Part shown: piece after piece, positions 6,609 through 28,323 of the stretch
How the letters are laid out: the number at the start of each line of letters is the position of its first letter
How positions within the stretch are numbered: position 1 is the first letter of the stretch
NCBI RefSeq assembly: GCF_037902255.1
Contig: NZ_CP147990.1
Coordinates: 1,620,001-1,652,000 of the forward strand
Length of the DNA stretch: 32,000 nt
Origin: Candidatus Electrothrix sp. GW3-4
GTDB lineage: Bacteria > Desulfobacterota > Desulfobulbia > Desulfobulbales > Desulfobulbaceae
Direction: 5' to 3'
Notes under the pieces: generated by a model
Database searches by the model: none
What the model was told of the DNA's origin: nothing
The model's input: only the letters and a program-made list of their open reading frames with translations
Program-made: the position numbers and the translations under genes

Positions 6609-6666
6609 TAATATTAATAAGATAAAGCTCGGGAGGCCGTGGAGCTCTTCGGTTTCCAGGATAGCT

Positions 6667-8754: not shown

Positions 8755-8872
8755 GCCTTGATAATTCATTGTTATGTTTTTATGTGTTCATACCAAGGTC
8801 TGACTCAGCAACCCCGAAAAAAATGAACCTAAAAAGCCCCTCTTAAATTGAATACTGATAAAAAGGAAGAGA

Positions 8873-10893: not shown

Positions 10894-11008
10894 GTTATGG
10901 ATAATACTTTTGTGAAACCTCAGACTGTATGGGATAAAAAAAAATATTTTGTTCCCAATAATTATAGTCCTGCTCGCCATATGCTTTTTTTATTCTGTCA
11001 ATTCTAGT

Positions 11009-12067
11009 TAGGAGTTACGCAGTTGGTAGAGATCCGTTAGTATAGCAGCATGAACAAGCCCAAGATAACAGAATACGATTACATAGATTTCCTTATCGGC
11101 ACGCAAAAAGTTTATAGCTGCACGGAAGCGGAACGAGTTAATCCAGGTGAAACCTCTGGTCCGTCGCACGATGCGTACACCCGGCAGCTGCACCGCCTTT
11201 TTCCAAGCACTGATCGACTTTGGATCGAAGCTAAAGAGCATGTCGACCTGAAGAAAGGGTACCTGATTGCCGACGACAGCACCTCTGGACAAGTTTTACA
11301 GTCGTAAAATTAAACTGGTAACCCGCCATTGGTCGGGTAAACACAAAAAGGTCGTCTCTGGGATCAACCTATTGACTCTGCTGTGGACCGATGACGAGTG
11401 GTATATCCCTATAGATTACAGGAGTTACAACAAGTCCGTCGATGATTTAACGAAAAATGATCACTTTCGCACTATGCTGTGGACAGCTGCGGAACGGGGA
11501 GTTAGCCCAGAAGCTGTACTTTTTGACAGTTGGTATTCCGGCCTGGATAATCTTAAGCTCATCCGATTGCTCGGGTGGCTATGGATGACTCGCTTGAAGG
11601 GTAACCGTCTGATCAATCCCGATCGATCAGGAAATATTGCCGTTAGTCAGGCAAAAATTTCAGAACACGGCGAGGTAGTTCATCTTAAAGGATACGGTAT
11701 GATTAAAGTATTCAGGACTGTCAGAACAGACGATGACGCTGAATATTGGGCGACCAATGACCTGAAGATGAACGACCTTGAACGACTAAAATACTCCGAA
11801 CTTAGCTGGATGATTGAAACATATCATCGAGGTATCAAACAGTTCTGTGGTGCCGAACGTTGTCAGGCTCGTTCCGAACGGGCGCAGCGAAATCACATCG
11901 AATTGGCATTACGTGCTTTTTTACGCATAGAGTATCATTGTTTCGTTAAAGGGATTTCTTGGTTCGAGGCAAAGACTTCAATCATCCGTGATGCTGGTCG
12001 GGCTTATTTAGCTCAGCCGATTTATACGCTTGATCCTATCAACCTTTATGCAACTGCGTAACTCCTA
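11009..12067 (+). mobile_element. Insertion sequence (~1.06 kb) with 15-17 bp perfect terminal inverted repeats and a frameshifted IS701-like DDE transposase
   Basis: The left end is (TA)GGAGTTACGCAGTTG at 11009-11025 and the right end is CAACTGCGTAACTCC(TA) at 12051-12067; the two are exact reverse complements. The outermost TA could be part of the IR or a 2-bp target duplication. The transposase stop codon lies inside the right IR. Confidence 0.8.
11050..12061 (+). pseudogene. IS701-like (IS4-superfamily) DDE transposase split by a 1-nt frameshift near 11284
   Basis: ORF1 ends ...LIADDSTSGQVLQS*. Skipping the T at 11284 joins the two ORFs as ...LIADDST|LDKFYSRKIKLVTRHWSGKHKKVVSGINLLTLLWTD..., about 336 aa in total. 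The C-terminal WMIETYHRGIKQFCGAERCQARS..RNHIELALRAFL resembles the IS701/IS4 YREK region. There is no slippery heptamer at the junction. Confidence 0.75.
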
Positions 12068-12150
12068 TTTAATCTGGTTATTCTTTCAGTTACATACAAT
12101 CTTTTCTTTCTTCAGAAAAAATAAAGAGAAACAGAGAGTTTGATGTCGTT

Positions 12151-13830
12151 ATGGAGGTAAAAGAATATTGCAAATTATCTGTTATTATTCCAATATACAA
12201 TGAAGAAAAGACGCTCAGTAAGGTGGTCAATGCTGTCCAGAGAGTTGAACTTCCTCTTGCGAAAGAAATTGTCATTGTTGATGATGCCTCAACGGACTCA
12301 ACCCGCCAGGTTATTGAACAGTTTCCCGATAAGAATTTTGTAAAGATTTTTCATGATAAGAACCAGGGAAAAGGGGCTGCATTGCGCTCCGGTTTTGCCA
12401 GAGCAACCGGAGATGTCATCTTAATTCAGGATGCCGATTTGGAGTATAATCCAGCTGAGTACCCCAAGTTACTGAAGCCCATATTGGACGGTAAGGCCGA
12501 TGTGGTTTATGGGTCGCGATTTATCGGTTCAGATGCCCATCGGGTCCTCTATTTTTGGCACATGGTAGGTAACCGTCTTTTAACACTTTTTTCAAACACA
12601 TGCTCCAATCTTAATTTAACAGATATGGAGACCTGCTATAAGGTGTTCAAAAAAGATGTGATTGGGCGGATTGAGTTAGAGGAAAATCGTTTTGGAATTG
12701 AACCCGAAATGACGGCAAAGATAGCCCGGTTAGCACAAGATCAAGAGATTGCCATCTATGAGGTTGGGATATCTTATTTTGGACGTACTTATAGTGAAGG
12801 CAAAAAAATTGGTATTAAAGATGCGTTTCGTGCTGCATGGTGTATCTGGAAATATAATACAACGACAACGGCAAAAATAATTAAGTACGTTACTCATGGT
12901 GGCATTGTCGCTCTGTCTCAGTTTCTTTTGATGGTCCTTCTTGTTCAAGGAGCCAGTTTAACGACAGCGTATGAGCTGAATGTAGCAAATATACTGAGCA
13001 TTGAAGGGGCCTTACTTATAGCTTTCTTGCTTCATTCAACCCTCACCTGGCATGTTCGGTTTATCTCAATCCAAAAAGTTATAAAGAGTCTCCTCGAATT
13101 TCACCTTGTTACGAGTATAAGTATCCTGACGAGAATCGGCAGCTTTTACTTTTTGAATTTCCTCGGACTCAATTATATTCTTAACCTTACCATCGGAATT
13201 ATCGCCGCTGTTTTAATTAATTACTTTGGTTATGAAAAAATTGTTTTTAATGGAGAGAGGGAGAAGCAAGAACCTTTTATGGAACCCATTCTCCGCAGAA
13301 TGAGGATCAGGAGGGTACTTCAAGAAATCAGGAAAAAACCTAAATCTGCTCTACTTGACGTGGGATGCGGTTTTAATCATGCATTTCTATCTGCTATAGG
13401 ACCCTATATCGGAAGTGGTACCGGGATTGATTTTAAGGTTCAAGAAAAAAAATCTGCTAATATTTCTACTATTCAAGCTCGATTGGATAAAAAACTGCCC
13501 TTTGAAAACGCTACCTTTGATACCGTAACAATGCTTGCCGTACTTGAGCATCTCGATCATCCATTAGCAATTACACGCGAAATAACGAGGGTGCTTAAAC
13601 CTGGTGGGAAATTAATCCTCACCGTGCCTGGAAAACGGGCAAAACCTGTGCTTGAATTCCTTTCCTTTAAATTGGGAATTGTTAACCGCGCCGAGATTGA
13701 AGATCATAAAAAATATTACGACCTTGAGGAATTAAAAGAGCTTATTCGACAAATCGACCCCTTGGAGATTATTGAACATAGACATTTTCAGTTTGGCATG
13801 AATAATTTTTGCATAATACAAAAGAAGTAG
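12151..13830 (+). CDS. Tri-domain protein: GT2 glycosyltransferase, GtrA-like membrane domain and class I SAM-dependent methyltransferase
   Basis: The GT2 domain shows LSVIIPIYNEEKTL, VIVDDASTDST, QDADLEYNP and GSRF. The GtrA-like hydrophobic segment spans roughly residues 245-365 (IIKYVTHGGIVALSQF...NYFGYEKIVF). The methyltransferase domain shows LLDVGCGFN (motif I), FDTVTMLAVLEHL and LKPGGKLILTVP. Confidence 0.8.
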   Translation: MEVKEYCKLSVIIPIYNEEKTLSKVVNAVQRVELPLAKEIVIVDDASTDSTRQVIEQFPDKNFVKIFHDKNQGKGAALRSGFARATGDVILIQDADLEYNPAEYPKLLKPILDGKADVVYGSRFIGSDAHRVLYFWHMVGNRLLTLFSNTCSNLNLTDMETCYKVFKKDVIGRIELEENRFGIEPEMTAKIARLAQDQEIAIYEVGISYFGRTYSEGKKIGIKDAFRAAWCIWKYNTTTTAKIIKYVTHGGIVALSQFLLMVLLVQGASLTTAYELNVANILSIEGALLIAFLLHSTLTWHVRFISIQKVIKSLLEFHLVTSISILTRIGSFYFLNFLGLNYILNLTIGIIAAVLINYFGYEKIVFNGEREKQEPFMEPILRRMRIRRVLQEIRKKPKSALLDVGCGFNHAFLSAIGPYIGSGTGIDFKVQEKKSANISTIQARLDKKLPFENATFDTVTMLAVLEHLDHPLAITREITRVLKPGGKLILTVPGKRAKPVLEFLSFKLGIVNRAEIEDHKKYYDLEELKELIRQIDPLEIIEHRHFQFGMNNFCIIQKK

Positions 13831-13899
13831 ATTATCCTACAAGCAGTCCCAAACACTCTTTGAGTGAGAGCCAGCTTCTTTTTTTAACCCCACAACGCT

Positions 13900-14730
13900 A
13901 TGGCTGAACTTGCCGTCATTATTGTTACCCATAATTCTCAAGATGTGCTGCCTCGCTGTTTGGCTGCTCTTCGCCAGCAAACGATGCAGGCTGATATCGT
14001 CTTGGTAGATTCAGGGTCAAAGGATGCTTCTTATCTGAATGCCTACAAGGATTGGGTTGGAATCAGTGTTCTTTTTTTAGAAAATATTGGATTTAGTCGA
14101 GCTAATAATATCGGCTATCAAAGGGTATATCAAACAGCAAAATTTATCCTTTTTCTTAATCCAGACGCCTTTCTCTCAGAGAACACCCTCGAATATGCCC
14201 TTGCCGTTCTTAAAAAGAATAATAAAGTCGGATGTATAGGAGGGAGGCTGTTGGGCTATGACCAGAGTAATGATCAACCTACAGGCCTTTTGGATTCCAC
14301 CGGGGTATTCAGGAAATGGTATGGCTGTTGGTATGACCGAAGTCAAGGCGAGAAGGATGCCGGGCAGTATCTGATCCAAGAAGACGTCCCCGCTCTTTGT
14401 GGGGCCTTTCTTTTTTGCCGTCAGGCTATGCTGGCTCAGCTTTCCATAGAGCTGGGGTCTGATAACGAGGTTTTTGATCCAGACTTCTTTCTATATAAGG
14501 AAGATATTGAACTCTGCCTGCGAATCAGTAAATTGGGATGGAGGATTGTTTACTCTCCGGCAATACAGCTCTACCATTGCAGGGGCTGGCAGAAAAAACG
14601 ACAACAGATTTCCTACCAACAGCGTTTGATAGCGGCTCGAAGTGAGCTCATCTTGTATAAAAAACACCTTTCCATATATATTTTCTGGGCCTGGTTTAAG
14701 TATGTGCTGGTACGTTGGTTCAAAATATAG
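13900..14730 (+). CDS. GT2 glycosyltransferase (rhamnosyltransferase-like)
   Basis: Supporting motifs are AVIIVTHNS, LVDSGSKD, NIGFSRANNIG, FLNPDAF, CGAFLFCR and FDPDFFLYKEDIELCLR. Confidence 0.8.
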   Translation: MAELAVIIVTHNSQDVLPRCLAALRQQTMQADIVLVDSGSKDASYLNAYKDWVGISVLFLENIGFSRANNIGYQRVYQTAKFILFLNPDAFLSENTLEYALAVLKKNNKVGCIGGRLLGYDQSNDQPTGLLDSTGVFRKWYGCWYDRSQGEKDAGQYLIQEDVPALCGAFLFCRQAMLAQLSIELGSDNEVFDPDFFLYKEDIELCLRISKLGWRIVYSPAIQLYHCRGWQKKRQQISYQQRLIAARSELILYKKHLSIYIFWAWFKYVLVRWFKI

Positions 14731-14743
14731 CTGCTGACTGGCG

Positions 14744-15691
14744 ATGAACAAAAATCAGACCGTCTCCTTAATTATACCCACCTTAAACGCTGAGCCCTGG
14801 CTTGCTGGTCTACTCTCTTCCTTGGTGCGACAGACCCTCTTGCCTGATGAAATCTTATTGATCGATTCAGGATCAACCGATGGGACACTTGCTATTGCGG
14901 AAGGCTATATACGCAGGTATCCCGTTATCCGTCTTTATCAAATTCAGCAACAAGACTTTGATCATGGCGGAACCCGTACCATGGCGGCCCGGAAAACAAC
15001 AGGGGAGATCTTGATCTTTATGACCCAGGACGCTGTGCCAGCAGAGGACCGCGCCCTTGAGCTGCTGATTCGCTCATTTGCAAGCAATCAACAGCTTGCC
15101 GCAGCCTATGGCAGGCAACTTCCTGTACAGGATGCGACCTTCTTTGGTGAGCATCTCCGCCTTTTTAATTATCCAGAAAAACCACAGTTGCGTTGCCAGC
15201 AGGATTGGGGCATCTACGGCTTTAAGACGGTTTTTATTTCTAATTCCTTTGCAGCATGGCGGCGGGACCTGTTGAGGGAACAAGGGTATTTTCCAGGACA
15301 GTTGCTCTTTGGGGAAGACACTGTAGCGCTGGCAAAAATGCTTGAAAAGGGATATTATGTAGCATATGTGAGTGATGCTGCGGTGTATCATTCTCATAAC
15401 TATTCAATTGCCCAGGATTTTAAGAGGTATTTTGACATTGGCGTCTTGCATGAGACACAGGCTCAATACCTTTTGCAGCATGGGGGGCCAGCTGGAGCTG
15501 GCAGAAAATATGTCCTGTCGGAGTTGACGTTGCTCGCCAAGAAAAAAAAATATTATTTACTTCCAGAGGCATTGCTCCGTAACCTAAGCAAGTTTATTGC
15601 CTATAAGGTAGGGAGAAGGTTCAAGATGCTTCCCAGTGATTGGCCAGCTCGTTTAAGTATGAATCCTGGCTGGTGGTCCAAGTCTCTATAA
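14744..15691 (+). CDS. GT2 glycosyltransferase
   Basis: Supporting motifs are VSLIIPTLNAEPWL, ILLIDSGSTDGT, FDHGGTR, FMTQDAVP and GEDTVALAKML. Confidence 0.8.
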   Translation: MNKNQTVSLIIPTLNAEPWLAGLLSSLVRQTLLPDEILLIDSGSTDGTLAIAEGYIRRYPVIRLYQIQQQDFDHGGTRTMAARKTTGEILIFMTQDAVPAEDRALELLIRSFASNQQLAAAYGRQLPVQDATFFGEHLRLFNYPEKPQLRCQQDWGIYGFKTVFISNSFAAWRRDLLREQGYFPGQLLFGEDTVALAKMLEKGYYVAYVSDAAVYHSHNYSIAQDFKRYFDIGVLHETQAQYLLQHGGPAGAGRKYVLSELTLLAKKKKYYLLPEALLRNLSKFIAYKVGRRFKMLPSDWPARLSMNPGWWSKSL

Positions 15692-15693
15692 TT

Positions 15694-17121
15694 ATGTCTC
15701 CTGCCTTATCCTGGAATCTGCGTCAGCGCAGTTCAATTATTTATAAACTGCTCCATATTCTTGACTGTTCGTTAGTTTGTGGCTATCTTTGGTTGCTTGT
15801 TTTCTTATACAAGGTTCCTTGGAGCCGTTATTATACCTGGTTGGAAGTTGTTGTCTTCACCTTAGCCTTTCTCTGTTTTCAATACCTTCAGCTGTACCGT
15901 TCCTGGCGCGGCTGGAAACTCTACCTTGAATTTTTTGTTATTCTTAAGGCTTGGGCCTCTGTTGTTGGTCTCCTGCTTTTTTATTTCTTTATTTTTAAGG
16001 TATCTGAAGGATATTCCAGGGTCGTTTTTATCTTATGGTCACTCACTACCCCTTTTTTAATTTTTTTTTCCCATCTTCTTGTTCGTCAGTTCTTACGCCA
16101 TTATCGAACACAGGGGAAAAATATTCGTCATGCCGTTATTGTTGGTGCCGGTGATCTCGGGCTTAAAATGGCCATGCAATTGGACGCCATTCCTTGGGCG
16201 GGTATCGAAATTGTAGGTTTTTTTGATGATAAACTTCAGGGGAATGCCTTAAACAGCACCGGGAAACCTCTGCTTGGCCGAATCGATAATATCCACGAAT
16301 ATCTTCTCTCTAATGACATTGATTATGTGTATATAGCCTTGCCCATGCGGGCTGAGCGGAAAATTTTTTGGATTTTGCGTGAATGCCGTGATCTTGGCGC
16401 ACAAATTTTCCTCGTGCCAGACCTCTATATCTTTGGCCTACATCACGCAGAAATTCAATCCGTTGGTGATATGCTGGTTCTGAATTTCAATCCGGTCTCT
16501 GGCTGGAAACGAGGCTTTGATATTGTCTTTTCATTGACGATTCTTCTGCTCAGCAGCCCGGTTATGTTGCTTATCATGCTGCTTATTAAGGTTGACAGCA
16601 AAGGGCCAATTTTTTACCGACACCGCAGGATTACAGCCACAGGGCGCGAGTTCGGATGTCTGAAGTTCAGAACTATGGTTGTTGATGCAGATAAAAAATT
16701 AAACGAGCTGTTACAAGAAAATCTGTCCCTTGCTGAGGAATGGAATAGAAGCTTTAAACTCAAAGATGACCCACGAATTACCAGGGTAGGGCGTTTTCTT
16801 CGCAGGACGAGCCTTGATGAGTTCCCGCAATTTTTTAACGTCCTGAAAGGAGAAATGAGCGTGGTTGGAGCACGCCCCATTGTTGGGAGAGAGCTTAAGG
16901 AATATTATAAAGGGAATGGTGAACAGAGTGCTGGCCGTTATGTCTCAATGAAACCAGGTATTACTGGTCCCTGGCAGGTAACAGAACGAAGTGATATAGA
17001 AAATTATAAGCAAAGAATCGAGCTTGATGATTGGTATGTCCTCAATTATTCGCTGCTCTGCGATCTAAAAATTATCCTTAAGACTATTCGTTGTATGTTT
17101 ACGGGCAAAGGGGCGTATTAA
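15694..17121 (+). CDS. Polyprenyl-phosphate hexose-1-phosphate transferase (WcaJ/WbaP-type priming enzyme, bacterial sugar transferase family)
   Basis: The N-terminal TM bundle is followed by a Rossmann-like region (AVIVGAGDLG). The C-terminal catalytic domain shows KRGFDIVFS, KGPIFYRHRRI, KFRTM, DPRITRVGRFLRRTSLDEFPQFFNVLKGEMSVVGARP and KPGITGPWQV. I prefer the ATG at 15694 (MSPALS), 2 nt after the upstream stop, over the track start at 15640. Confidence 0.9.
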   Translation: MSPALSWNLRQRSSIIYKLLHILDCSLVCGYLWLLVFLYKVPWSRYYTWLEVVVFTLAFLCFQYLQLYRSWRGWKLYLEFFVILKAWASVVGLLLFYFFIFKVSEGYSRVVFILWSLTTPFLIFFSHLLVRQFLRHYRTQGKNIRHAVIVGAGDLGLKMAMQLDAIPWAGIEIVGFFDDKLQGNALNSTGKPLLGRIDNIHEYLLSNDIDYVYIALPMRAERKIFWILRECRDLGAQIFLVPDLYIFGLHHAEIQSVGDMLVLNFNPVSGWKRGFDIVFSLTILLLSSPVMLLIMLLIKVDSKGPIFYRHRRITATGREFGCLKFRTMVVDADKKLNELLQENLSLAEEWNRSFKLKDDPRITRVGRFLRRTSLDEFPQFFNVLKGEMSVVGARPIVGRELKEYYKGNGEQSAGRYVSMKPGITGPWQVTERSDIENYKQRIELDDWYVLNYSLLCDLKIILKTIRCMFTGKGAY

Positions 17122-17365: not shown

Positions 17366-17461
17366 GTTACCCAGAAGATCGCTGGCTTTTTCCAGAACGC
17401 GCCTGGTTTAGGCAAGCAACCTTCTCGCTCTCACCCAGAAAATTTCTTCCTTAACCCAAAC

Positions 17462-19273
17462 ATGTTCCTTCCTACCACCCAACAAGAACTGCAAGAGCTC
17501 GGCTGGGACTGCCTGGATATCATCCTGGTTAGCGGCGATGCCTATATCGATTCCCCTTTTATCGGGACCGCCGTGATTGGCCGGGTACTGGCAGATGCTG
17601 GTTTCCGGGTGGGGATCATTGCCCAGCCCGACCTGCAGGGTGAAGACATCTGTCGCCTTGGTGAACCCAAGCTTTTCTGGGGCGTGAGCGGGGGCTGTGT
17701 GGACTCCATGGTGGCCAATCGCACGGCTTCCGGGAAACGACGAAAACAGGACGACTATACCCCTGGCGGTAAAAATAGTCATAGACCGGATCGGGCGGTA
17801 CTGATCTATGCCAACCTTATCCGCAGCAAGTTCAAAAACACCTGCCCCCTTGTTCTGGGCGGTATCGAGGCCAGCCTCCGCCGTATTGCCCATTATGATT
17901 ACTGGTCTAATTCCGTGCGTCGTTCCATCCTCCTGGATGCCAAGGCAGATTTCCTCCTCTATGGTATGGCTGAGCGGGCGGTGCTGGAGCTCGCTACCTG
18001 TCTGCAGGAGGGCGATGACCCGCGTATTCTTCGCGGTCTTTGTTATCCTGCTCCAGAACGACCAGCAGATTCTCTCAAGCTGCCAGCTTTTGCAGAGGTC
18101 TCTGGGAGCAGCCCCCAGGCCAAGAAGGCCTTTACCCGGATGTTTCGCCGCTTTTACGCAAATAATGATCCCATCACAGCACAACCCCTGGCCCAACTGC
18201 ACGGCAGCCGCTGGTTGGTTCAGAATCCACCCCAGCCCCATCTCTCCCCAGAGGAGCTGGATCATGTCCATAGCCTTGATTATCAGCTTGATCTCCATCC
18301 TTATCATCAGCAGCAGGGAGATGTCAGGGCCTTGGAGACCATTCGTTTCTCCCTTGCCACCCATCGGGGCTGTTATGGCGAGTGCAATTTCTGTGCTATT
18401 GCTGTTCACCAAGGGCGAACTATTGTCCAGCGGAGGAGAAAATCGATCATTGCTGAGGCCCGCCGCTTCCTCAAGCATCCTGCCTTTAAGGGGAGAATCC
18501 ACGATGTGGGCGGACCCACGGCCAATATGTACGGGGTGGAATGCCGCAAGAAGCTGAACAAGGGCTGCTGCCCGGATAAACGTTGCCTCTTTCCCCAAAA
18601 ATGTCAGGCCCTGCCGATAGATCATGGTGAACAACTGCGCCTGCTGGAGGAACTGCGCCAACTCAAAGGGGTAAAGCAGGTGGTGATCTCATCCGGCATC
18701 CGCTATGATCTGATCCTGGCTGATCAGAAAAACGGCCTGACCTACCTGCGCCAGGTGGTGCGCCATCATGTCTCAGGTCAGATGAAGGTAGCGCCGGAGC
18801 ATTGCCAGGATACGGTGCTGGCCTGTATGGGTAAGCCTGGCCGGGCCAGCCTGCTCCGCTTCCGGGATCTCTTTAATCGCATGAGCGCCCAGGAAGGACT
18901 GAAGCAGTTCCTCACCTATTATATCATTGCGGCCCATCCTGGCTGTCGTCAACAGGATATGCAGGCCTTGAAAAAGTTTGCCCTCAAGGAACTCCAGGTC
19001 CTGCCCAGGCAGGTGCAGATCTTTACCCCCACCCCCTCGACCTGGTCCACCCTGATGTATTGGACTGGCGAGAATCCCTTTACCGGCCAACCCTGTTTTG
19101 TGGAAAAGGACAACCAGGCCCGGGAGCGGCAAAAGGCCGTGCTGACGGGACCGGCTCAGAGGCCCCAAAAGGGCCAGGGGCAGAACCGTAGTTTTGCGCC
19201 AAAGAAGGGACAAAAGGCAGGGGCTGGACCAAGGAAAAAGGGGAGGGTTACTCCTCGAAAAAAAAGAGGCTGA
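17462..19273 (+). CDS. ygiQ: YgiQ-family (UPF0313) radical SAM protein
   Basis: It is 603 aa long. The CX3CX2C cluster motif appears in HRGCYGECNFCAI. The N-terminal DIILVSGDAYIDSPF... and the Lys/Arg-rich C-terminal tail are as I recall for YgiQ proteins. Confidence 0.9.
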   Translation: MFLPTTQQELQELGWDCLDIILVSGDAYIDSPFIGTAVIGRVLADAGFRVGIIAQPDLQGEDICRLGEPKLFWGVSGGCVDSMVANRTASGKRRKQDDYTPGGKNSHRPDRAVLIYANLIRSKFKNTCPLVLGGIEASLRRIAHYDYWSNSVRRSILLDAKADFLLYGMAERAVLELATCLQEGDDPRILRGLCYPAPERPADSLKLPAFAEVSGSSPQAKKAFTRMFRRFYANNDPITAQPLAQLHGSRWLVQNPPQPHLSPEELDHVHSLDYQLDLHPYHQQQGDVRALETIRFSLATHRGCYGECNFCAIAVHQGRTIVQRRRKSIIAEARRFLKHPAFKGRIHDVGGPTANMYGVECRKKLNKGCCPDKRCLFPQKCQALPIDHGEQLRLLEELRQLKGVKQVVISSGIRYDLILADQKNGLTYLRQVVRHHVSGQMKVAPEHCQDTVLACMGKPGRASLLRFRDLFNRMSAQEGLKQFLTYYIIAAHPGCRQQDMQALKKFALKELQVLPRQVQIFTPTPSTWSTLMYWTGENPFTGQPCFVEKDNQARERQKAVLTGPAQRPQKGQGQNRSFAPKKGQKAGAGPRKKGRVTPRKKRG

Positions 19274-21717: not shown

Positions 21718-22845
21718 CTATTTGGTCCCGATGGATGGGGCTTGCCAGGTGTATACGGCGGTAACCGCGTAATTCCAGACAGAGCTGACCCCTATTCCGG
21801 CCAGAGCCGAGAGCATCCAATTGGTCTGCCGTTGAAATAGGAGCGAGGCAATGCCGACATTGGCAGCCGCTCCAACCCCGCAAACCAAGATAAAGGAAAA
21901 CCAGCCAGTAAGTAGCTTCCAGCCCTTGAGCTGGACATCGTTATAGGTGAAGAGATTATTCAGCAGATAATTGGTGGTCATGGCCACCAGCGTGGCCGCA
22001 GCCTGTCCGTAAGCAAAAGGCGCGCCGGTTATGCGGAAGAGCAGCAACAAGACCAGAAAATGGACCAGTACTCCAATCCCCCCTACCAGGACAAAGGCGG
22101 CAAAACGGACCGGAATTATATGTCCGATCCATTTATCCAGGAGGAGCATGCCAAATTCAAGCAAGGCCCGATTGTCCAGTTTGCTTTCTCCGGCATGGCG
22201 CTCCTTAAAGGTGTAGGGGAGTTCCAAAAAACGCAGGGGGGTTGAGGAAGAGGCAAAGAGGTCCAGCAGGATCTTAAAGCCTACGCCGGATAATCTACGA
22301 ACCCGTTGCATCAAGGCTTCCCGCTGGATCATAAAAAAACCGCTCATGGGGTCGGTCAGCTCTGTCTGGGTGAAATAGCGGCTGATACGGGTCGCAAAGC
22401 GGCTGTAGGCGGCTCTCTTGGTATCCCAGCTTCCAATCCCACCGCCGTCTATGTAGCGGCTGCCCACCACAATATCAAGCTGCTGACTGCGCAAGGCTGT
22501 CAGCATATCAGGAAGCAGGGTCGCATCATGCTGGAGATCAGCATCCATCACAGCAAGGTAGGGGGCAGAGGTGGAAAGCATCCCCTCTACGCAGGCTGAA
22601 GAAAGGCCCCGTCGTCCAATGCGGTGAATGAGACGGACCCTCGGATTTTGAAAGGCCATATCTGCGATCTTTTGGCTTGTTTTATCTGGGGAGTCATCAT
22701 CAACAAAGATGACTTCCCAGGGGATGCCTTGAAGCGTTTCGCTAAGATGGCGGGTCAGCTCCTCCACATTTTCAACTTCATTATAGCAGGGAACCACGAC
22801 AGAGAGCAACGGTGCTGCAGTGGAAAGAGAGTCTTTATTGTTCAT
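21718..22845 (-). CDS. GT2 polyprenyl-phosphate glycosyltransferase fused to a C-terminal GtrA-like membrane domain (DPM-synthase-like)
   Basis: Supporting motifs are LSVVVPCYNEVENV, VIFVDDDSPD, MDADLQHD and PMSGFF. The C-terminal ~120 aa are hydrophobic and GtrA-like (VRFAAFVLVGGIGVLVHF...NYLLNNLFTY). I prefer the ATG at 22845 (MNNKDS) over the TTG at 22884. Confidence 0.85.
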   Translation of the reverse strand: MNNKDSLSTAAPLLSVVVPCYNEVENVEELTRHLSETLQGIPWEVIFVDDDSPDKTSQKIADMAFQNPRVRLIHRIGRRGLSSACVEGMLSTSAPYLAVMDADLQHDATLLPDMLTALRSQQLDIVVGSRYIDGGGIGSWDTKRAAYSRFATRISRYFTQTELTDPMSGFFMIQREALMQRVRRLSGVGFKILLDLFASSSTPLRFLELPYTFKERHAGESKLDNRALLEFGMLLLDKWIGHIIPVRFAAFVLVGGIGVLVHFLVLLLLFRITGAPFAYGQAAATLVAMTTNYLLNNLFTYNDVQLKGWKLLTGWFSFILVCGVGAAANVGIASLLFQRQTNWMLSALAGIGVSSVWNYAVTAVYTWQAPSIGTK

Positions 22846-22968: not shown

Positions 22969-23616
22969 TTAGATAACCTGCTTCTGTTTAAACCAGGTAT
23001 GCCAGCTGGTATTACAACATGGAGTCGGGCATTGTTTGCCGTGATAACGGCAGTCATTTCCTCGGGAACAGTCATTGTGTTGGCAACGAGGACGGCAGTG
23101 ATGCTCGATATTCGGCTTATAGTGGACGCCACAGAATTGACAGCGAACTTCCCCGCAATGGTGTTTCATACCCTGGCGATAATGCATACCACATGTTTCA
23201 CACTGTACTATGCCGCAGCGATGTTCAACATCTCGAAGATGTACCATGCCACATCGCTGGCATTGGATTTTATTGCAATAATGATCAACTCCTTTGGGAT
23301 AACGGGTACCACAGAGCTTGCACTGTACTGTGGTAATTTGTTCTGTTTTCTGCGTACAGGTTGTTTGGCATTGGTAGGTATGCTTATGAACTACCTTTTT
23401 ATTGCACGAACGAGAGAGGGCGCATTGCTTGCATTGACCACAGCGGGTAGGGCAGGGCTGTGGGTGTCTGTGTCGCATGCTTTGGCATTGGGGACAGTTG
23501 CAAGGGCGAATTTGCGGTGGGGTTCTTTCGTAGCAATCATAAGAAAGAGCCGTGCTCGCTGTTAATACTGTTAAGAATAAGGTGGCAAAGAAACTGATCG
23601 TAAAAATAGATTTCAT
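22969..23616 (-). CDS. Secreted Cys/His-rich protein with four tandem 20-aa CxxCG...HxC repeats (unknown family)
   Basis: The start is preceded by GGGAGG 4 nt upstream. The N-terminus is signal-peptide-like (MKSIFTISFFATLFLTVLTASTALS|YD). By my count there are about 29 Cys and 16 His in 215 aa. Residues 97-176 form four repeats: VQCKLCGTRYPKGVDHYCNK / IQCQRCGMVHLRDVEHRCGI / VQCETCGMHYRQGMKHHCGE / VRCQFCGVHYKPNIEHHCRP. There is no CXXCH motif. Confidence 0.7.
   Translation of the reverse strand: MKSIFTISFFATLFLTVLTASTALSYDCYERTPPQIRPCNCPQCQSMRHRHPQPCPTRCGQCKQCALSRSCNKKVVHKHTYQCQTTCTQKTEQITTVQCKLCGTRYPKGVDHYCNKIQCQRCGMVHLRDVEHRCGIVQCETCGMHYRQGMKHHCGEVRCQFCGVHYKPNIEHHCRPRCQHNDCSRGNDCRYHGKQCPTPCCNTSWHTWFKQKQVI
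23089..23328 (-). repeat. Four in-frame tandem 60-bp repeats encoding the CxxCG-x9-HxC units
   Basis: This span corresponds to residues 97-176 of the 22969-23616 protein. The period is exactly 20 codons, with conserved Cys, Gly and His positions. Confidence 0.7.
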
Positions 23617-23799
23617 ACTTCCTCCCGTTATTGAAAATGAGTTATTGAGGCCTCATTGATGAGGGATACCCTACTTTTTTAGTGAGAACAATAAAAAAAG
23701 ACTACAAGAGCGAGGTGCAGCTGGAGAGCAAGATGTTTTTTCTCTGAGTTGAGATTGTTGATCATCAGGATATCTCTCCATATTATTGGGAATGTTACC

Positions 23800-26235
23800 T
23801 TATGCCTTGATGGAATAAAACTTGTCAATCATTCGCTTATGATTCAAGGCAACGCTACAGTCACGCAGCAGTAAGCCCGTCATCTCTTTTTCCGGGATGG
23901 GGGGACTGAAGAGAAAGCCTTGCCCTTCGTGGCATTGGTTTTTTTGCAAGAAGAAAAGATGTTCCTCAGTTTCTATGCCCTCCGCAATAACTCTGAAGCG
24001 CAGGTTCTGGGCAATGGCAATGATACCCAGGGTGATAGCTGCATCAGTATTATTCGTGGTGACATTGGTAATAAAAGAACGATCAATTTTGATTTTATCT
24101 ACCTGGAGATGTTGTAAATAACTCAGCGATGAATACCCGGTTCCAAAATCATCAATAGCCAGTTTTATTCCTTCTGCCCGCAGTTTGTTGATCAGATCCA
24201 CCGTGAAGTCCATGTTTTCAATGAGTACTCCCTCAGTGAACTCAACTTCCAGGGAGTCAGGCGGAAAGCCTGTGCTTTCTATACAGCTCATAATCTGATA
24301 AAACAGGTCACGCCGGCGGAGCAGGCGTCCTGAAATATTTACTGCCATGATAAATTTTCTAAAGCCCATATCCCGCCATTTCTTTCCCTGTAAACAGGCC
24401 TGACGAACAAGATCAATACCCAGTTTTTCAATGAGCCCTGTGCTCTCAGCAATAGGAATAAAGGCCGCAGGTGAAACAAGGCCTTTTACCGGATGAATCC
24501 AGCGGGCGAGGGCCTCCATTCCGCAGATGGAACCGTCGGTGAGGTTAATTTGCGGCTGATAGAAGTTAATCAGGGCGTCATCCGCCACAGCCTGACGGAG
24601 ATCATTTTCCAGATACAGGCTTTGTGCGGCCTGTATTTTCATGCCACTGTTCCATGAACAGATTCTGTTTCCTCCTTCGCCTTTTGCGGCCTCCATAGCT
24701 GTATCTGCGTTGCGCAGGACATCCAGTGGGGTCTCACCGTCGTCTGGATACACACTGTAGCCGATACTGGGTCTGATAAGGATGGCACGGGATTCATTAT
24801 TGACCGGGGTCCGAAATCGTTGCATGATTTTTAGGGCAAGCTTCTGCGCATGCTCCCTGTCCGAAGGAGGAGGGAGGATAATGGCAAATTCATCACCACT
24901 GAGTCTGGCAATAAGGTCTGCGCCAGCTTCTTGGCCGCATTGCTGGAGGATGGTGGAAACACTACAGAGTATTTTGTCGCCAAAGCCGGGGCCGAAGATC
25001 TGATTAATGCGTTTAAAATGGTCCAGGTCAACATAGAGGAGCCCTATTCTACTGTCATCTTCTTGCGCGGCCTGTATGGAATCCTCAAGATATTGCTGGA
25101 AGGAAGGTCTGTCTACAAGTCCGGTTAATGTGTCATAGGTCAGTTCTGCTGACAGGTGATTGCCAGAGTCCTTCTGGAACCCCCATTTGAGGGGCGAGGA
25201 TGGGCTTAGCGATTCTTCCAGATGGAGCAAACAGATAAAGCCCTTTTCCTGTCCTTCCTCTTGTCCATCTGAATATTTAAAGGAGATAATAGATGACTTT
25301 TCCTCTGGTTGTTCTGCATCTTCCCCACCCTGCCAATTTCCCTGCCGAATGGCATCTTTGAGAAAGGCCCTCCCTTCCCAATTTTCTTGATGTACAGACT
25401 GCTTCATGGCCTCTTTGATCGTACTGCCTGCATCCGCCAAGCGGACGACCTGATCAATCCGTTTGGCCTGGATGGCCTTTAAGCTGTAGCCGGTTCGCTT
25501 CAGGAAAACGGGGTTGGCATAAACGATGCGTTGCTCGAGATTAATAAAAAGGATTCCGCAATCCTGATTGTCCATGACCTGGCGCCGAATAGACAACTCT
25601 TTCTGTAATCTGAATGAGGTGGTTTTTGCCTGATGCAATTGGGTTTTATATTCAGCCAGTTGCTGGTGCAGAATCTCATGGTTCTCATCCCATCTCTTTC
25701 CCGAGTTGTCTCCCCCAGTGAGAGGGCTGTCTCTTTTTGTCTTCTCCCCCTTTACTTTGCTTTCCTTAGGAGAGGTATCGAGCTGCTGTTCATAGGAAAT
25801 ATTTATTGTTCCCCAGCTCATAAGATGCTCTTCGCAGTAAATCAACCCAGCCCCGTTAAATCCGGGTTGGAGGATACTGTCTGTGCCCAAGGGCTGAATA
25901 ATGACAGTAAAGCTGTCAGCGGCTATTTTTTGTACGCTGATGAGATGGGAAAAATCGTGAAATGGTTCAAGCGTGAGCTCAGGGGCCTGAATGTCGGTGA
26001 CCTTAAAGATAAGTTGAAAGCGCTGTTCCTCTTTTTCTGTTTCCGACCCGAGGTGCAATACTTCTGGCTCCCAGGTAATACCGGGGTTGCTGCCAGTGCT
26101 TTGTCGATCCTGATCAAGAAAGGGGAACGGGCTGTTGAAGCCGCAGAATTGACAGGTGAAGCTATTATTTTCGATCAGGGAGGGGGTCAGGGTGATACTG
26201 TTTCTCTGACCGCATTCTTCACAAAAGAGAATCAT
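23800..26235 (-). CDS. Zinc-ribbon / PAS / GGDEF / EAL multidomain c-di-GMP turnover protein
   Basis: The N-terminus has CEECG-x22-CQFCG. A PAS-like segment (ILFINLEQRIVYANPVFLKRTGY) follows. The GGDEF domain carries the variant SGDEF (RLSGDEFAIIL). The EAL domain has intact motifs: YQPQ, EALARW, N.SG, DDFGTGYSSLSYL, KIDRSF, EGIETEE and QGFLFSPP. Confidence 0.9.
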   Translation of the reverse strand: MILFCEECGQRNSITLTPSLIENNSFTCQFCGFNSPFPFLDQDRQSTGSNPGITWEPEVLHLGSETEKEEQRFQLIFKVTDIQAPELTLEPFHDFSHLISVQKIAADSFTVIIQPLGTDSILQPGFNGAGLIYCEEHLMSWGTINISYEQQLDTSPKESKVKGEKTKRDSPLTGGDNSGKRWDENHEILHQQLAEYKTQLHQAKTTSFRLQKELSIRRQVMDNQDCGILFINLEQRIVYANPVFLKRTGYSLKAIQAKRIDQVVRLADAGSTIKEAMKQSVHQENWEGRAFLKDAIRQGNWQGGEDAEQPEEKSSIISFKYSDGQEEGQEKGFICLLHLEESLSPSSPLKWGFQKDSGNHLSAELTYDTLTGLVDRPSFQQYLEDSIQAAQEDDSRIGLLYVDLDHFKRINQIFGPGFGDKILCSVSTILQQCGQEAGADLIARLSGDEFAIILPPPSDREHAQKLALKIMQRFRTPVNNESRAILIRPSIGYSVYPDDGETPLDVLRNADTAMEAAKGEGGNRICSWNSGMKIQAAQSLYLENDLRQAVADDALINFYQPQINLTDGSICGMEALARWIHPVKGLVSPAAFIPIAESTGLIEKLGIDLVRQACLQGKKWRDMGFRKFIMAVNISGRLLRRRDLFYQIMSCIESTGFPPDSLEVEFTEGVLIENMDFTVDLINKLRAEGIKLAIDDFGTGYSSLSYLQHLQVDKIKIDRSFITNVTTNNTDAAITLGIIAIAQNLRFRVIAEGIETEEHLFFLQKNQCHEGQGFLFSPPIPEKEMTGLLLRDCSVALNHKRMIDKFYSIKA

Positions 26236-26330: not shown

Positions 26331-26870
26331 TTATGTCGTTGCAACGTAACGGCTCAAAACACGATACAGCATGTCTGGCAGATCGTTTTTATTACGCGAA
26401 CTGCGCTGGATCTGCTTAAGGCATTTTTTCAAGGTGAGTTTTTCTCCAAGAAAAATGTGGCGAAGAATCAGGGAAATGAGTCGGGTTATTGTGGTCAGGT
26501 TGGATATTCGCGACTGCAATTCATGATCGCGATCAAAAGCGGTTGACGCAAAGACCTCTACGGGGTGTCCATCAACCTCACTGACCGAGAGATACCATTT
26601 ATTTTGATCTCGATCAATGGTTCGATAGCGTTTGCCGTCCAAAACCTCTGGAAGTTCTGGATCGGTTTCTCTTGTTTCTGCGGCTCCGTTGCTCCAGCTG
26701 GGTCTGTCTTGGATGTACGGTAAGACGTTCTCTATAATAGAGGGATGTTTTTTCAGAGTTTCCACGAGGGTACAGCAGGAGGAACATACCTGAAATCCAG
26801 CCTTGCGGACTGTTTGTTTTTCGGCCCCGCATAATTGACAACACGGGGACGACATTTTTTTCACCTCCAC
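26331..26870 (-). CDS. Zinc-ribbon protein with a C-terminal TSCPD-like (ribonucleotide-reductase C-terminal-like) domain lacking the Cys
   Basis: A strong SD (AAGGAGG) lies 4 nt upstream of the ATG at 26870. The N-terminus has CCQLCG-x15-CSSCC. The C-terminal GHPVEVFAS...ITRLISLILRH...NDLPDMLYRVL parallels the P.EVF...RLISLALRHG...TSCPDA pattern I recall for TSCPD domains. Confidence 0.5.
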   Translation of the reverse strand: MEVKKMSSPCCQLCGAEKQTVRKAGFQVCSSCCTLVETLKKHPSIIENVLPYIQDRPSWSNGAAETRETDPELPEVLDGKRYRTIDRDQNKWYLSVSEVDGHPVEVFASTAFDRDHELQSRISNLTTITRLISLILRHIFLGEKLTLKKCLKQIQRSSRNKNDLPDMLYRVLSRYVATT

Positions 26871-27701: not shown

Positions 27702-28026
27702 GAGGGGAACAGGAAGGATGCGGTAAGGGAAGGGCCAATTTTCAATCTGATAGAGTCGATAATCGTCCCCCTTGATGGCCTCTATATGGGGCCTCTGTCA
27801 TTATTCATCTGAATTGTGCGAATGCGCAGCTACTTTTTTTTCTTGACGATAGGCTGAGCATGTATTAATCCTAGTAAGATCATTCAAAAAGAGTTGATTT
27901 TAACTTTACCTTTCTCAGTCGACGTTGAGCGAGAAATAGGTCTCTAAACAAGTCGTGCTACTGCGGATGGTTGAGTTTTCATTGCAGGTTGTATTAACAT
28001 ATCTTATTTTAGAAGGAGAAAGAATT

Positions 28027-28323
28027 ATGAAGTTATCTGTTATTGGTTTCGCTGCTGCATGTCTGCTGGTTGCCGGGTCTGCTTTTGCAAATGACGTTGA
28101 TATAGCTGCTGCTAAAGCGGCGACAGCGAGCTGCAATGGCTGTCATTCAGGTGCGATGGCTGTTAAGTTTGCGGATATAGAAAATAAGGACAGTGAGCAC
28201 ATTAAAAGCGCAATCGTTGATGGTCTGGATACGGACAAGCCTGGGGTTATGCCGAAACAGGACTTAGGAGATAAGCTTGACAACGTCGTCGCATGGATCG
28301 CAGCAGGGGCTCCTGAAGAGTAA
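28027..28323 (+). CDS. Small periplasmic monoheme class I c-type cytochrome
   Basis: I prefer the internal ATG at 28027 (AGGAGAAAGAATT-ATG) over the track start at 27955. It has a signal peptide (MKLSVIGFAAACLLVAGSAFA|ND), a single CNGCH haem-binding motif and a distal GVMP that could supply the Met ligand. Confidence 0.8.
   Translation: MKLSVIGFAAACLLVAGSAFANDVDIAAAKAATASCNGCHSGAMAVKFADIENKDSEHIKSAIVDGLDTDKPGVMPKQDLGDKLDNVVAWIAAGAPEE

Follow-up and report, generated by a model that had tools for sequence, protein, structure and literature searches.

A predicted exported protein with four 20-residue Cys/His repeats, a candidate metal-binding array of the cable bacterium Candidatus Electrothrix

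A CxxCG motif at the turn of a beta-hairpin is the classic metal knuckle. The bacterial SmtA/BmtA and Hpn-type proteins are small Cys/His-rich metal buffers, and they are cytoplasmic. TRAF-type fingers have a longer C2HC spacing, and the Cys-repeat modules of TNFR are of about 40 residues with six Cys that form three disulfides. In bacteria with a Dsb system the cysteines of extracytoplasmic proteins are usually disulfide-bonded. A 20-residue Cys3His module carried by proteins with signal peptides, as described here, departs from the general expectation that zinc fingers stay inside the cell and that exported Cys are disulfide-bonded.

The module is encoded by Candidatus Electrothrix sp. GW3-4, a marine electricity-conducting cable bacterium. 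The literature of 2024-2026 had not yet identified the proteins of the cable-bacterial fibres, for which Cys links and S-rich proteins are invoked only hypothetically; the periplasmic fibres contain more than 95% of cellular Ni, Ni(ett) oligomers have been suggested to carry Cys end-caps, and the cartwheels show co-localised Cu and S (PMC13534509; bioRxiv 10.1101/2025.10.10.681601; PMC11247825). The family to which the protein belongs, of which no account was found in the literature on cable bacteria, bears on how the nickel-sulfur conductive fibres are built, loaded or anchored by proteins. Earlier bioinformatic searches for fibre proteins would miss it, having been guided by annotations of known Ni proteins and by conservation in the two genera.

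Reading frame and N-terminus of a Cys/His-rich gene

The stretch of DNA analysed here, referred to as the window, is 32,000 nt long. An ORF on its minus strand (22969..23616, stop codon included) starts with ATG and is translated into a product of 215 aa with 29 Cys and 16 His, as had been counted approximately in the original prediction. All of these residues fall within the ~190-aa part that follows an N-terminal hydrophobic segment, giving this mature part a composition of 15% Cys and 8% His. The ribosome binding site, already described as strong, reads GGGAGG (23621..23626, minus strand) and ends 4 nt 5′ of the ATG; in the upstream alignment GGAGGA is identical in eight of nine regions, the exception being YB6 with GGAGGG. 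Twenty-four full-length homologues were found, and dN/dS in the minus-strand frame ranges from 0.11 to 0.37, versus 0.05-0.15 in the neighbouring genes, the protein evolving about three times faster than its neighbours. On these sequence comparisons, the ORF is a real protein-coding gene under purifying selection.

That there is no gene here at all, the ORF having arisen by chance or as the shadow of a plus-strand ORF at 22999-23565, is barely credible. The exact protein is recorded only from Logan assemblies with no NCBI source, the YB6 orthologue was passed over by the gene caller, and the antisense ORF extends for 188 aa. A long antisense ORF is expected here from codon make-up, since no stop codon arises when TGY, CAY or CAR is reverse-complemented. 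Moreover, the dN/dS values are well below 1, the full-length homologues differ by indels of unit size, the Shine-Dalgarno sequence is conserved, and the antisense ORF is split into several shorter, differing ORFs at both orthologous loci examined. The plus-strand ORF was therefore rejected as a gene, its frame not being conserved and dN/dS being below 1 on the opposite strand, and the earlier choice of the minus strand stands. Rfam and tRNA scans of the window returned nothing.

Residues 1-25 (23542..23616, minus strand) form a predicted Sec-type signal peptide with cleavage after A-L-S. Inspection of the N-terminus found M-K-S (with K2), a run of ~19 hydrophobic residues (mean Kyte-Doolittle 1.6-1.7) and A-L-S before Y26; the n, h and c regions are thus all present with small residues at -3 and -1, whilst neither a twin-arginine motif nor a lipobox (L-x-x-C) was found in this segment. 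AlphaFold places a helix at residues 5-24, and across the family A-[GS]-T-A-[LF]-[SA], followed over the predicted cleavage site by Y-[DQE]-C, is near-invariant (alignment A1). These features, all classical for a Sec signal and family-conserved, agree with the N-terminus as originally predicted. We infer that the protein is exported by the Sec pathway, though the predicted N-terminal helix could alternatively be an uncleaved anchor. A Tat-exported Fe-S protein and a lipoprotein were both rejected, the former for the lack of an RR motif and the latter for the lack of a lipobox. The Sec route exports proteins unfolded, in contrast to Tat. With a signal of the Sec rather than the Tat type, the protein would therefore leave the cytoplasm unfolded, and only simple ions gained in the periplasm would be plausible as cofactors.

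The 20-residue unit, its flanks and its other carriers

Residues 97-176 consist of four 20-residue units of exact period, each with the pattern [VI][QR]-C-x2-C-G-x2-[YH]-x5-H-x-C-x2. Unit 1 (residues 97-116; 23269..23328), with a pLDDT of ~90, has the putative ligands C99, C102, H112 and C114. Units 2 to 4 follow without interruption: residues 117-136 (23209..23268; putative ligands C119, C122, H132 and C134), 137-156 (23149..23208; C139, C142, H152 and C154) and 157-176 (23089..23148; C159, C162, H172 and C174), all coordinates being on the minus strand. When the mature sequence was shuffled 200,000 times, at least two units arose in 0.085% of trials, with a maximum of three and never four. 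The four exact repeats of the original prediction are thus recovered. Only 7-9 of the 20 residues are common between units and Tandem Repeats Finder detected no repeat at the DNA level, so the repeat is old and has been maintained at the protein level.

The unit also behaves as a module. The search pattern fixes C, C, H and C; beyond these, 90% of 117 strict units from 35 proteins have G immediately after CxxC, and 96% have Y or H at position 10. Indels within the family are of whole units, with a copy number of 2-5. Together, this conservation and these indels argue that the unit is a self-standing module. Only one of the 24 family members, P0014, lacks an intact CCHC set in unit 1, a 20-residue deletion having fused its units 1 and 2; unit 4 is missing from six homologues through unit-sized deletions. 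AlphaFold models the repeat block with pLDDT 80-93 and two short strands around each CxxCG, so that each unit is confidently modelled as a beta-hairpin knuckle.

Loss of putative ligands follows the boundaries of the units. All nine units with a damaged CxxC also lack their own His, whereas the His of the preceding unit is lost in only two of the nine, a count that represents about six independent and phylogenetically clustered events. Such co-loss of CxxC and His within a unit favours one Cys3His site per unit. The clade resembling E. gigas retains the protein despite substitutions of ligands in units 2-4 (H to Y; C to R, Y or D), so multiple intact sites are not essential.

The two Cys-rich regions that flank the repeat block bring 17 further Cys, of which six are conserved. 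The N-terminal region (residues 26-96; 23329..23541, minus strand) has 11 Cys, including C-x-C-x2-C and C-x3-C-x2-C-x2-C, and a pLDDT of 38-51; its conserved positions are Y26, C28, C59, C62, Y81, Q82, C83, T85 and T96 (alignment A1). The C-terminal region (residues 177-203; 23008..23088, minus strand), also of low pLDDT, contains six Cys, of which C196 and C201 are near-invariant in the alignment. The protein ends with a conserved amphipathic helix (residues 204-215; 22972..23007, minus strand; modelled by AlphaFold at residues 204-213) with the motif (E)T(R)WHxWFKNQ, and W205, W208 and F209 are near-invariant in this helix across the family.

The same unit, in the form C-x2-C-[GK]-x2-Y-x2-G-x2-H-x-C, was found in tandem in proteins of unrelated architecture using the family profile (E 2e-14 to 2e-5). 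P0028 is a protein of 753 aa with a signal peptide and seven units; P0030/P0032, of 407-411 aa, have a signal peptide, an NPKTG sorting signal and four units; and P0031, of 351 aa, has three units and a phage-type integrase gene nearby. These are large proteins with the units placed stalk-like between other domains. Unlike the Electrothrix family, they have neither the Cys-rich flanks nor the C-terminal WHxWF helix and are not encoded beside GT2-GtrA. All 21 Cys of P0028 occupy ligand positions of the units, as do all 12 Cys in the mature part of P0030, a sortase-anchored Gram-positive protein. The occupancy in these two proteins and the co-loss within units both favour the Cys3His site that had been proposed for each unit. 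Pfam scans of the distant carriers gave only noise, and P0031 had no match in a scan of viral contigs.

Distribution and gene neighbourhood

The full-length homologues share 37-100% identity over at least 96% of their length. The window protein has every hallmark of the family: a signal peptide, SYDCY, a YQCxTTCT segment, between two and five CCHC units, the WHxWFKNQ helix and a position 5′ of a GT2-GtrA gene. All named homologues are from Electrothrix. An HMM search of 1.84 billion representative proteins gave nine matches only, the repeat-only profile returned a single fragment from an index of 5.8 billion proteins, and a scan of metagenome contigs added just two loci. No homologue named as Electronema was returned by the homologue searches; gene callers can skip the gene, as at the YB6 locus, and the DNA scan covered narrow patterns only. 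An Electronema orthologue of the partner GT2-GtrA gene was likewise missing from its best 120 matches. Overall, the family appears to be essentially specific to Electrothrix. It was also observed that the gene is often not called as a gene at all.

The partner gene (21718..22845, minus strand) lies 123 nt downstream in the same orientation and encodes 375 aa from an ATG at 22845. By Pfam, its product joins a GT2 catalytic domain to a GtrA/DPMS transmembrane domain and is of the polyprenyl-phosphate hexose synthase type; P0038 of Candidatus Electrothrix sp. GW3-4 matches it with 100% identity. GT2-GtrA is directly 3′ of the Cys/His gene in all seven loci long enough to include it (L001, L003, L005, L006, L010, L011 and L015), and a terminator scan found no convincing terminator between the two genes. 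A large glycosyltransferase cluster lies near the Cys/His gene. This cluster and the adjacency to GT2-GtrA point to an envelope context for the protein. The original prediction had called for distribution and neighbours to be checked, and the answer is a family found almost only in Electrothrix with a constant downstream partner.

Upstream of the gene, a promoter-like element (23655..23700, minus strand) consists of a T-run, ATTGTTCTCAC and then GGGTATCCCTCATC. It is the sole strongly conserved block in the upstream alignment and occurs in all species examined, the gigas copy having the 3′ half only; a similar element lies 5′ of the distant member P0026. A consensus promoter scan did not call the element, and no metal-regulator operator was recognisable in it. 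From its conservation and position, we infer that it would act as a promoter.

Possible functions and comparison with known systems

The reading that we prefer, and hold to be somewhat probable, is that the protein is a Sec-exported array of Cys3His mini-fingers binding metal in the Electrothrix cell envelope. A basic protein of ~190 aa would be delivered by Sec to the envelope of this marine bacterium. At its core, four autonomous mini-fingers of 20 residues would follow one another, each folded as a beta-hairpin knuckle whose turn carries CxxCG. Each unit would close a tetrahedral-type Cys3His site with its own C1, C2, His and C3, taking up one metal ion after export. Zn2+ would be the default metal for Cys3His ligands, with Ni2+, Co2+ and Cu+ as further candidates. 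The 17 flanking Cys would form metallothionein-like CxC/CxxC clusters, serving either further metal binding or disulfides. The most likely role would be that of a thiolate-rich periplasmic metal-binding element, whether a metal buffer, a chaperone or a metal-stapled structural rod. Transcription would apparently start from the gene's own conserved promoter, possibly jointly with the downstream polyprenyl-phosphate sugar synthase.

The choice of metal over disulfides is suggested by the presence of three Cys and one His in every unit, and by P0028 and P0030, where the mature Cys are confined to ligand positions. A disulfide-rich structural envelope protein devoid of metal, with disulfides within or between units and the His kept for packing or pH sensing, is in our estimation unlikely. 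It would fit the predicted extracytoplasmic location and the even number (six) of conserved Cys among those outside the units. Moreover, the degenerate units of the E. gigas-like clade typically retain two Cys (such as DCYC, CRYC and YCYC), as if a disulfide had replaced a metal site. However, each intact unit has three Cys, and complete pairing is impossible in P0028 because its 21 Cys, all within units, are odd in number. The His, too, stands at a fixed spacing from the Cys and disappears along with the CxxC of the same unit, the CxxCG sits at a modelled hairpin turn, and the fold resemblances are solely to metal-binding modules. Less probable by far is a role in periplasmic electron transfer, for which the units would hold rubredoxin-like Fe(Cys3His) centres in a row, one per 20 residues. 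The CxxCG knuckle is the rubredoxin motif, rubredoxin is among the weak fold matches, and the host lives by long-distance electron transport. Against this, there is no Pfam rubredoxin match, each site has a single knuckle with HxC in place of the second, Sec export would require Fe to be loaded in the periplasm, and the ligands are lost in one clade. Nor is electron transfer likely in other carriers of the unit, namely a Gram-positive surface protein anchored by sortase and a product whose gene lies close to one for a phage-type integrase.

A link between the protein and the nickel conduction machinery is possible. Its fullest form, in which the protein is an Electrothrix-specific part or assembly factor of that machinery, acting as a periplasmic Ni (or Cu) chaperone, as a Cys-donating scaffold or cap for nickel bis(dithiolene) ribbons, or as a component of the Cu/S-rich cartwheel junction, we regard as quite unlikely, a little more so than a purely disulfide-bonded protein. 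The named homologues are confined to cable bacteria, export of the protein is predicted, its Cys and His content is extreme, and the published work on fibre proteins, periplasmic Ni, Cys end-caps and Cu/S cartwheels gives such a part a place (PMC13534509; bioRxiv 10.1101/2025.10.10.681601; PMC11247825). However, neither a homologue attributable to freshwater Electronema, which has the same Ni fibres, nor an Electronema orthologue of the partner among the best 120 GT2-GtrA matches was found. The protein is also fast-evolving, the E. gigas-like clade has lost ligands in units 2-4, the Cys3His unit recurs in surface proteins of unrelated bacteria, and its tetrahedral-type ligand set differs from the square-planar S4 site reported for fibre Ni. 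Were a role in conduction true, no protein of the cable-bacterial wire system would have been identified before this one. If metal binding as in our preferred reading holds true, a new domain family would be defined; the interest would be modest if the protein were a general metal buffer of the envelope or a filler rich in disulfides. The family is a concrete and cheap target, providing a query for proteomics of the fibre skeleton and a construct for metal-binding assays.

Comparison with described families returned little, in keeping with the original statement that no family was recognisable. Scans of the protein against Pfam and NCBIfam (E up to 10) and against PHROGs gave no match, and in sequence searches of the PDB neither the single sequence nor the repeat profile had a match below E 0.01. 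Fold or profile resemblances, none significant, were only to Zn-binding RING/IBR, TRAF-type, zinc-knuckle and rubredoxin modules: a TRAF-type zinc finger protein of Pithovirus, itself a predicted viral protein (E 9e-4, TMq 0.27, weak), TRAF6, TRIM and AIR2 (E 0.01-0.03, weak) and the TMEM55B RING-like module and RBR ligases (E 0.03-0.3, weak). The weak fold matches all fall in the zinc-knuckle/zinc-ribbon class, defined by fold rather than by sequence, where a CxxC at the turn of a beta-hairpin provides two of a metal ion's four ligands. As had been noted from the start, the protein contains no CXXCH: a regular-expression search found six CxxC motifs, none followed by His, and a multihaem c-type cytochrome was rejected. 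The TNFR cysteine-rich domain, under which P0006 is named at NCBI, was also rejected, there being no Pfam match and the units having 20 residues with three Cys and one His; the name appears to be a compositional pattern match.

Rubredoxin shares with the units a CxxCG at a hairpin turn. However, it has two knuckles (CxxCG/CPxCG) and an Fe(Cys)4 centre, whereas each unit here combines one CxxCG with HxC in a protein with a Sec-type signal; with one knuckle per unit and no match to Pfam Rubredoxin at E up to 10, the protein was not assigned to that family. The bacterial metallothioneins and buffers (SmtA/BmtA, Hpn-type) resemble the protein in being small and rich in Cys and His, with CxC/CxxC clusters, a variable number of sites and fast evolution. 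The protein nevertheless has no Pfam or NCBIfam match to SmtA/BmtA at E up to 10, and it differs from metallothioneins in having a regular, confidently folded repeat in place of a single metal-thiolate cluster domain. The eukaryotic CCHC/C2HC fingers (TRAF-type, RING-IBR and retroviral/AIR2 zinc knuckles) are alike in having three Cys and one His per small module, a CxxC at a beta-hairpin turn and tandem, elongated arrays. The units differ from TRAF-type fingers in being shorter, C-x2-C-x9-H-x-C, with a strict 20-residue period, and Pfam zf-TRAF gave no match, the weak structural likeness to the Pithovirus protein standing alone. Moreover, the eukaryotic families are cytosolic or nuclear, whereas the Cys/His-repeat protein, P0028 and P0030 have (predicted) signal peptides. 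On a bolder reading, independent of any role in conduction, the 20-residue Cys3His unit would be a new extracytoplasmic 'zinc-finger' module that serves diverse bacteria as a metal-stapled building block outside the cell.

The Cys/His gene and its coding strand

The Cys/His gene (22969-23616, minus strand) starts with an ATG placed 4 nt after a GGGAGG Shine-Dalgarno sequence and encodes 215 aa. As originally predicted, 29 Cys and 16 His all lie C-terminal to the N-terminal hydrophobic segment, a search of the whole 215-aa translation found no CXXCH, and residues 97-176 form four exact 20-residue units, [VI][QR]-C-x2-C-G-x2-[YH]-x5-H-x-C-x2. When the mature sequence was shuffled 200,000 times, at least two units arose in 0.085% of shuffles and four units in none. 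The units share just 7-9 of 20 residues and no DNA-level tandem repeat was detected in the gene, so the repeat is ancient and maintained by protein-level selection. The mature protein is basic (29 K+R vs 11 D+E).

Among 5.8 billion proteins searched, 24 homologues of 162-256 aa were found; they are 37-100% identical to the Cys/His protein across almost the full length and contain no Pfam domains. In the family alignment the signal-peptide region is conserved and is directly followed by a nearly invariant SYDCY motif; a conserved YQCxTTCTxKTEQITTVQC segment runs into unit 1, and a C-terminal helix, (E)TRWHxWFKNQ, is also retained. Unit number varies from 2 to 5 through insertion or deletion of whole units.

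The minus-strand gene is real. In this frame dN/dS is 0.11-0.37 across seven orthologues (Nei-Gojobori); between E. laxa and E. aarhusensis, for example, dS is 0.48 and dN 0.094, a ratio of 0.20. The plus-strand ORF at 22999-23565, which the original prediction had treated as a shadow, is rejected as a gene, the antisense strand of the two orthologous loci examined being broken into differing pieces of 100-136 aa. Its length is explained by Cys/His/Gln-rich codons, whose reverse complements contain no stop codons. A 417-aa ORF (17408-18661, minus strand) opposite a radical SAM gene (17462-19273, plus strand; Radical_SAM_N plus DUF3362) is most likely another shadow ORF. The coding status of a 122-aa ORF (27955-28323, plus strand) is uncertain; Pfam does not match it, and its one counterpart among related loci, in L005, is weak and partial (40% identity over 73 aa).

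The sole conserved block of the upstream intergenic region, the remainder of which is not alignable, is an element of ~45 nt (23655-23700, minus strand) lying 40-85 nt before the ATG and comprising a T-run, ATTGTTnTCAC and GGGTATCCC. It was found in nearly all aligned Electrothrix loci, including that of Electrothrix sp. YB6, and again ahead of the gene of a distant homologue, P0026; outside the window it is placed at L014:345-400. It is probably the gene's own promoter, or an operator. No convincing terminator was found between the Cys/His gene and the downstream gene GT2-GtrA, so co-transcription of the two is possible.

Distribution and pairing with GT2-GtrA

Strain GW3-4, whose genome is closed, is described as a new species of Electrothrix (PMC11247825). 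All named homologues of the Cys/His protein are from Electrothrix (laxa, ATG2, EH2). When one genome of every GTDB species was scanned at the DNA level, six loci were recovered, from E. laxa, E. marina, E. aarhusensis, E. gigas, another Electrothrix and one 'Desulfobulbaceae' MAG, the last with synteny identical to the others. The family HMM, searched against all 1.84 billion representative proteins, gave just 9 matches at E up to 0.001, and a metagenome scan added two further loci. The family thus has a very narrow distribution. None of its members could be assigned to the freshwater cable genus Electronema, an apparent absence given that the DNA-scan patterns are narrow (they would miss the YB6 form too) and that the gene is often uncalled. 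Indeed, the closed YB6 genome (CP178758.1) contains an uncalled 259-aa family member (L010:5066-5845, plus strand), and the exact window protein is recorded only from Logan assemblies, its neighbour protein being recorded from NCBI. Gene callers thus seem to skip the family, and protein-database surveys therefore under-count its members.

The gene order is SpoU methylase, TSCPD protein, GGDEF-EAL protein, Cys/His gene, GT2-GtrA. Upstream of the Cys/His gene this order is identical in the window and in each of the six species loci; four of these loci extend far enough downstream to show the next gene, which in every case is GT2-GtrA. Between species the flanking proteins share 68-90% identity but the Cys/His protein just 42-59%, with dN ~3 times that of neighbouring genes. 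In YB6 the upstream genes are different, yet the Cys/His gene still lies directly upstream of GT2-GtrA, as it does in loci L011 and L015. What is conserved is thus the gene pair, and the distribution and neighbours singled out for checking in the original prediction resolve into a narrow, essentially Electrothrix-specific family, paired with GT2-GtrA in every locus that extends far enough to show it.

The GT2-GtrA protein (21718-22845, minus strand) joins a GT2 catalytic domain to a GtrA/DPMS transmembrane domain, as polyprenyl-phosphate hexose synthases do; those enzymes provide the sugar donors used for glycosylation in the periplasm. Orthologues within Electrothrix are 81-90% identical, after which identity falls abruptly to 64% or less, in Chromatiaceae and other Proteobacteria; the named next matches (Chromatiaceae, Halochromatium, Thiosymbion, Competibacteraceae, Ideonella) are all Proteobacteria, and the best 120 matches include no Electronema or other Desulfobulbaceae. 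This pattern suggests that the ancestor of Electrothrix acquired the gene horizontally. No Cys-rich neighbour of the GT2-GtrA homologue was seen in two such genomes inspected, one being Halochromatium salexigens.

Other genes of the window were also noted. The GGDEF-EAL neighbour (23800-26235, minus strand) is an 811-aa PAS-GGDEF-EAL protein whose double-CxxC, zinc-ribbon-like N-terminus (MILFCEECGQ...FTCQFCGF) is nearly identical across seven Electrothrix species; residues ~40-215 have no Pfam match. The 179-aa TSCPD-domain protein (26331-26870, minus strand), invariably between the SpoU methylase and GGDEF-EAL genes, has a conserved N-terminal CCxLCG. A DDE transposase ORF (11267-12061, plus strand; DDE_Tnp_1) is inserted in a run of glycosyltransferase/envelope-polysaccharide genes (~4885-17121).

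A putative Cys3His site in each unit

Units of strict spacing (C-x2-C-x9-H-x-C) numbered 117 in 35 proteins; their C, C, H and C positions were set by the search pattern itself and do not count as independent evidence. Outside the pattern, G follows CxxC in 90% and Y or H occupies position 10 in 96%. Among divergent homologues, all nine units with a damaged CxxC had also lost their own His, whilst the preceding unit's His was lost in 2/9 and the third Cys (C3) was retained in 8/9; unit 1 is intact in 23/23 sequences possessing it. The co-losses represent some six independent events, support that is suggestive rather than statistical.

Moreover, the family profile recovered the unit in unrelated proteins. 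P0028 (753 aa, signal peptide) has 7 units, with 21/21 Cys at unit ligand positions, and P0030 (407 aa, signal peptide) has 4, with 12/12 Cys of the mature part so placed. P0030 and P0032 (407-411 aa, metagenomic, four units) end in an NPKTG sorting signal, a hydrophobic membrane anchor and a KKRAY tail, as in Gram-positive-type surface proteins; by these signals, cell surfaces beyond Desulfobulbaceae carry the unit too. The C-terminal half of P0031 (351 aa; L007:2688-3743, L008:2213-3268) contains 3 units. At its start P0031 overlaps the last part of an 830-aa protein, a phage-type integrase gene lies ~700 nt downstream and PHROGs gave no informative match; P0031 may belong to a prophage or mobile element, as a surface or tail protein. 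The odd number of Cys per unit and the His at fixed spacing argue for a metal site over a disulfide knot. Taken together, these data support one Cys3His site per unit.

Proposed role and relation to known metal modules

The predicted signal of the Cys/His protein is Sec-type and lacks a twin-arginine motif. From what is established about Sec and Tat export, such a chain should pass the membrane unfolded and acquire only simple periplasmic ions, which speaks against Fe-S clusters assembled beforehand and against organic cofactors. Once exported, the chain would pick up such ions in the periplasm, and every unit would fold round one ion held by C1, C2, His and C3. Zn2+ would be the default for this ligand set, with Ni2+, Co2+ and Cu+ also candidates. 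The flanks of the repeat block contribute 17 more Cys, arranged as CxC and CxxC clusters; six are nearly invariant (C28, C59, C62, C83, C196, C201). The flanking Cys may bind additional metal or form disulfides. We lean towards reading the protein as an exported tandem Cys3His metal-binding protein, and rate any specific role as much less likely. The copy number of 2-5, the fast divergence and the lost ligands in units 2-4 of an E. gigas-like clade would favour metal buffering, a chaperone or a metal-stapled envelope structure over an enzyme.

In cable bacteria >95% of the cell's Ni is located in the periplasmic fibres, where it forms a nickel bis(dithiolene) framework; the fibre proteins are reported as unidentified, Cys links to Ni oligomers are a modelling hypothesis, and Cu and S co-localise at cartwheel junctions (PMC13534509; bioRxiv 10.1101/2025.10.10.681601; PMC11247825). 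Published bioinformatic searches for periplasmic Ni proteins relied on known annotations and between-genera conservation. An Electrothrix-specific, predicted exported, Cys/His-rich protein is thus an obvious candidate to test for conduction. However, we consider its membership of the conduction machinery improbable: Electronema apparently lacks both the protein and a close GT2-GtrA orthologue (best 120 matches), the protein is fast-evolving with ligands eroded in one clade, the unit is present in non-cable bacteria too, and Cys3His is unlike the square-planar S4 site that has been reported for the Ni of the fibres.

That the repeat lies outside described domains, as first proposed, agrees with the searches: the protein had no match in Pfam or NCBIfam at E up to 10, none in PHROGs and nothing significant among PDB sequences. 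AlphaFold2 with the family alignment gave pLDDT 80-93 at residues 91-176, the flanks being of low confidence, and a repeat-only model averaged 81; in both, two short strands bracket CxxCG in every unit, forming a knuckle hairpin. Foldseek found no significant PDB match (best E 0.03, TM-scores up to 0.2), the weak matches all being metal-binding mini-modules (TMEM55B RING-like, RBR/IBR, ZCCHC4, rubredoxin), and the best match in the viral set was a TRAF-type zinc-finger protein (E 9e-4, TMq 0.27). The literature searched contained no paper describing the family. The Cys3His repeat is the same in kind as CCHC knuckle-type metal modules, a known principle; what is new here is its strict 20-residue period and predicted extracytoplasmic setting in a lineage-restricted protein.
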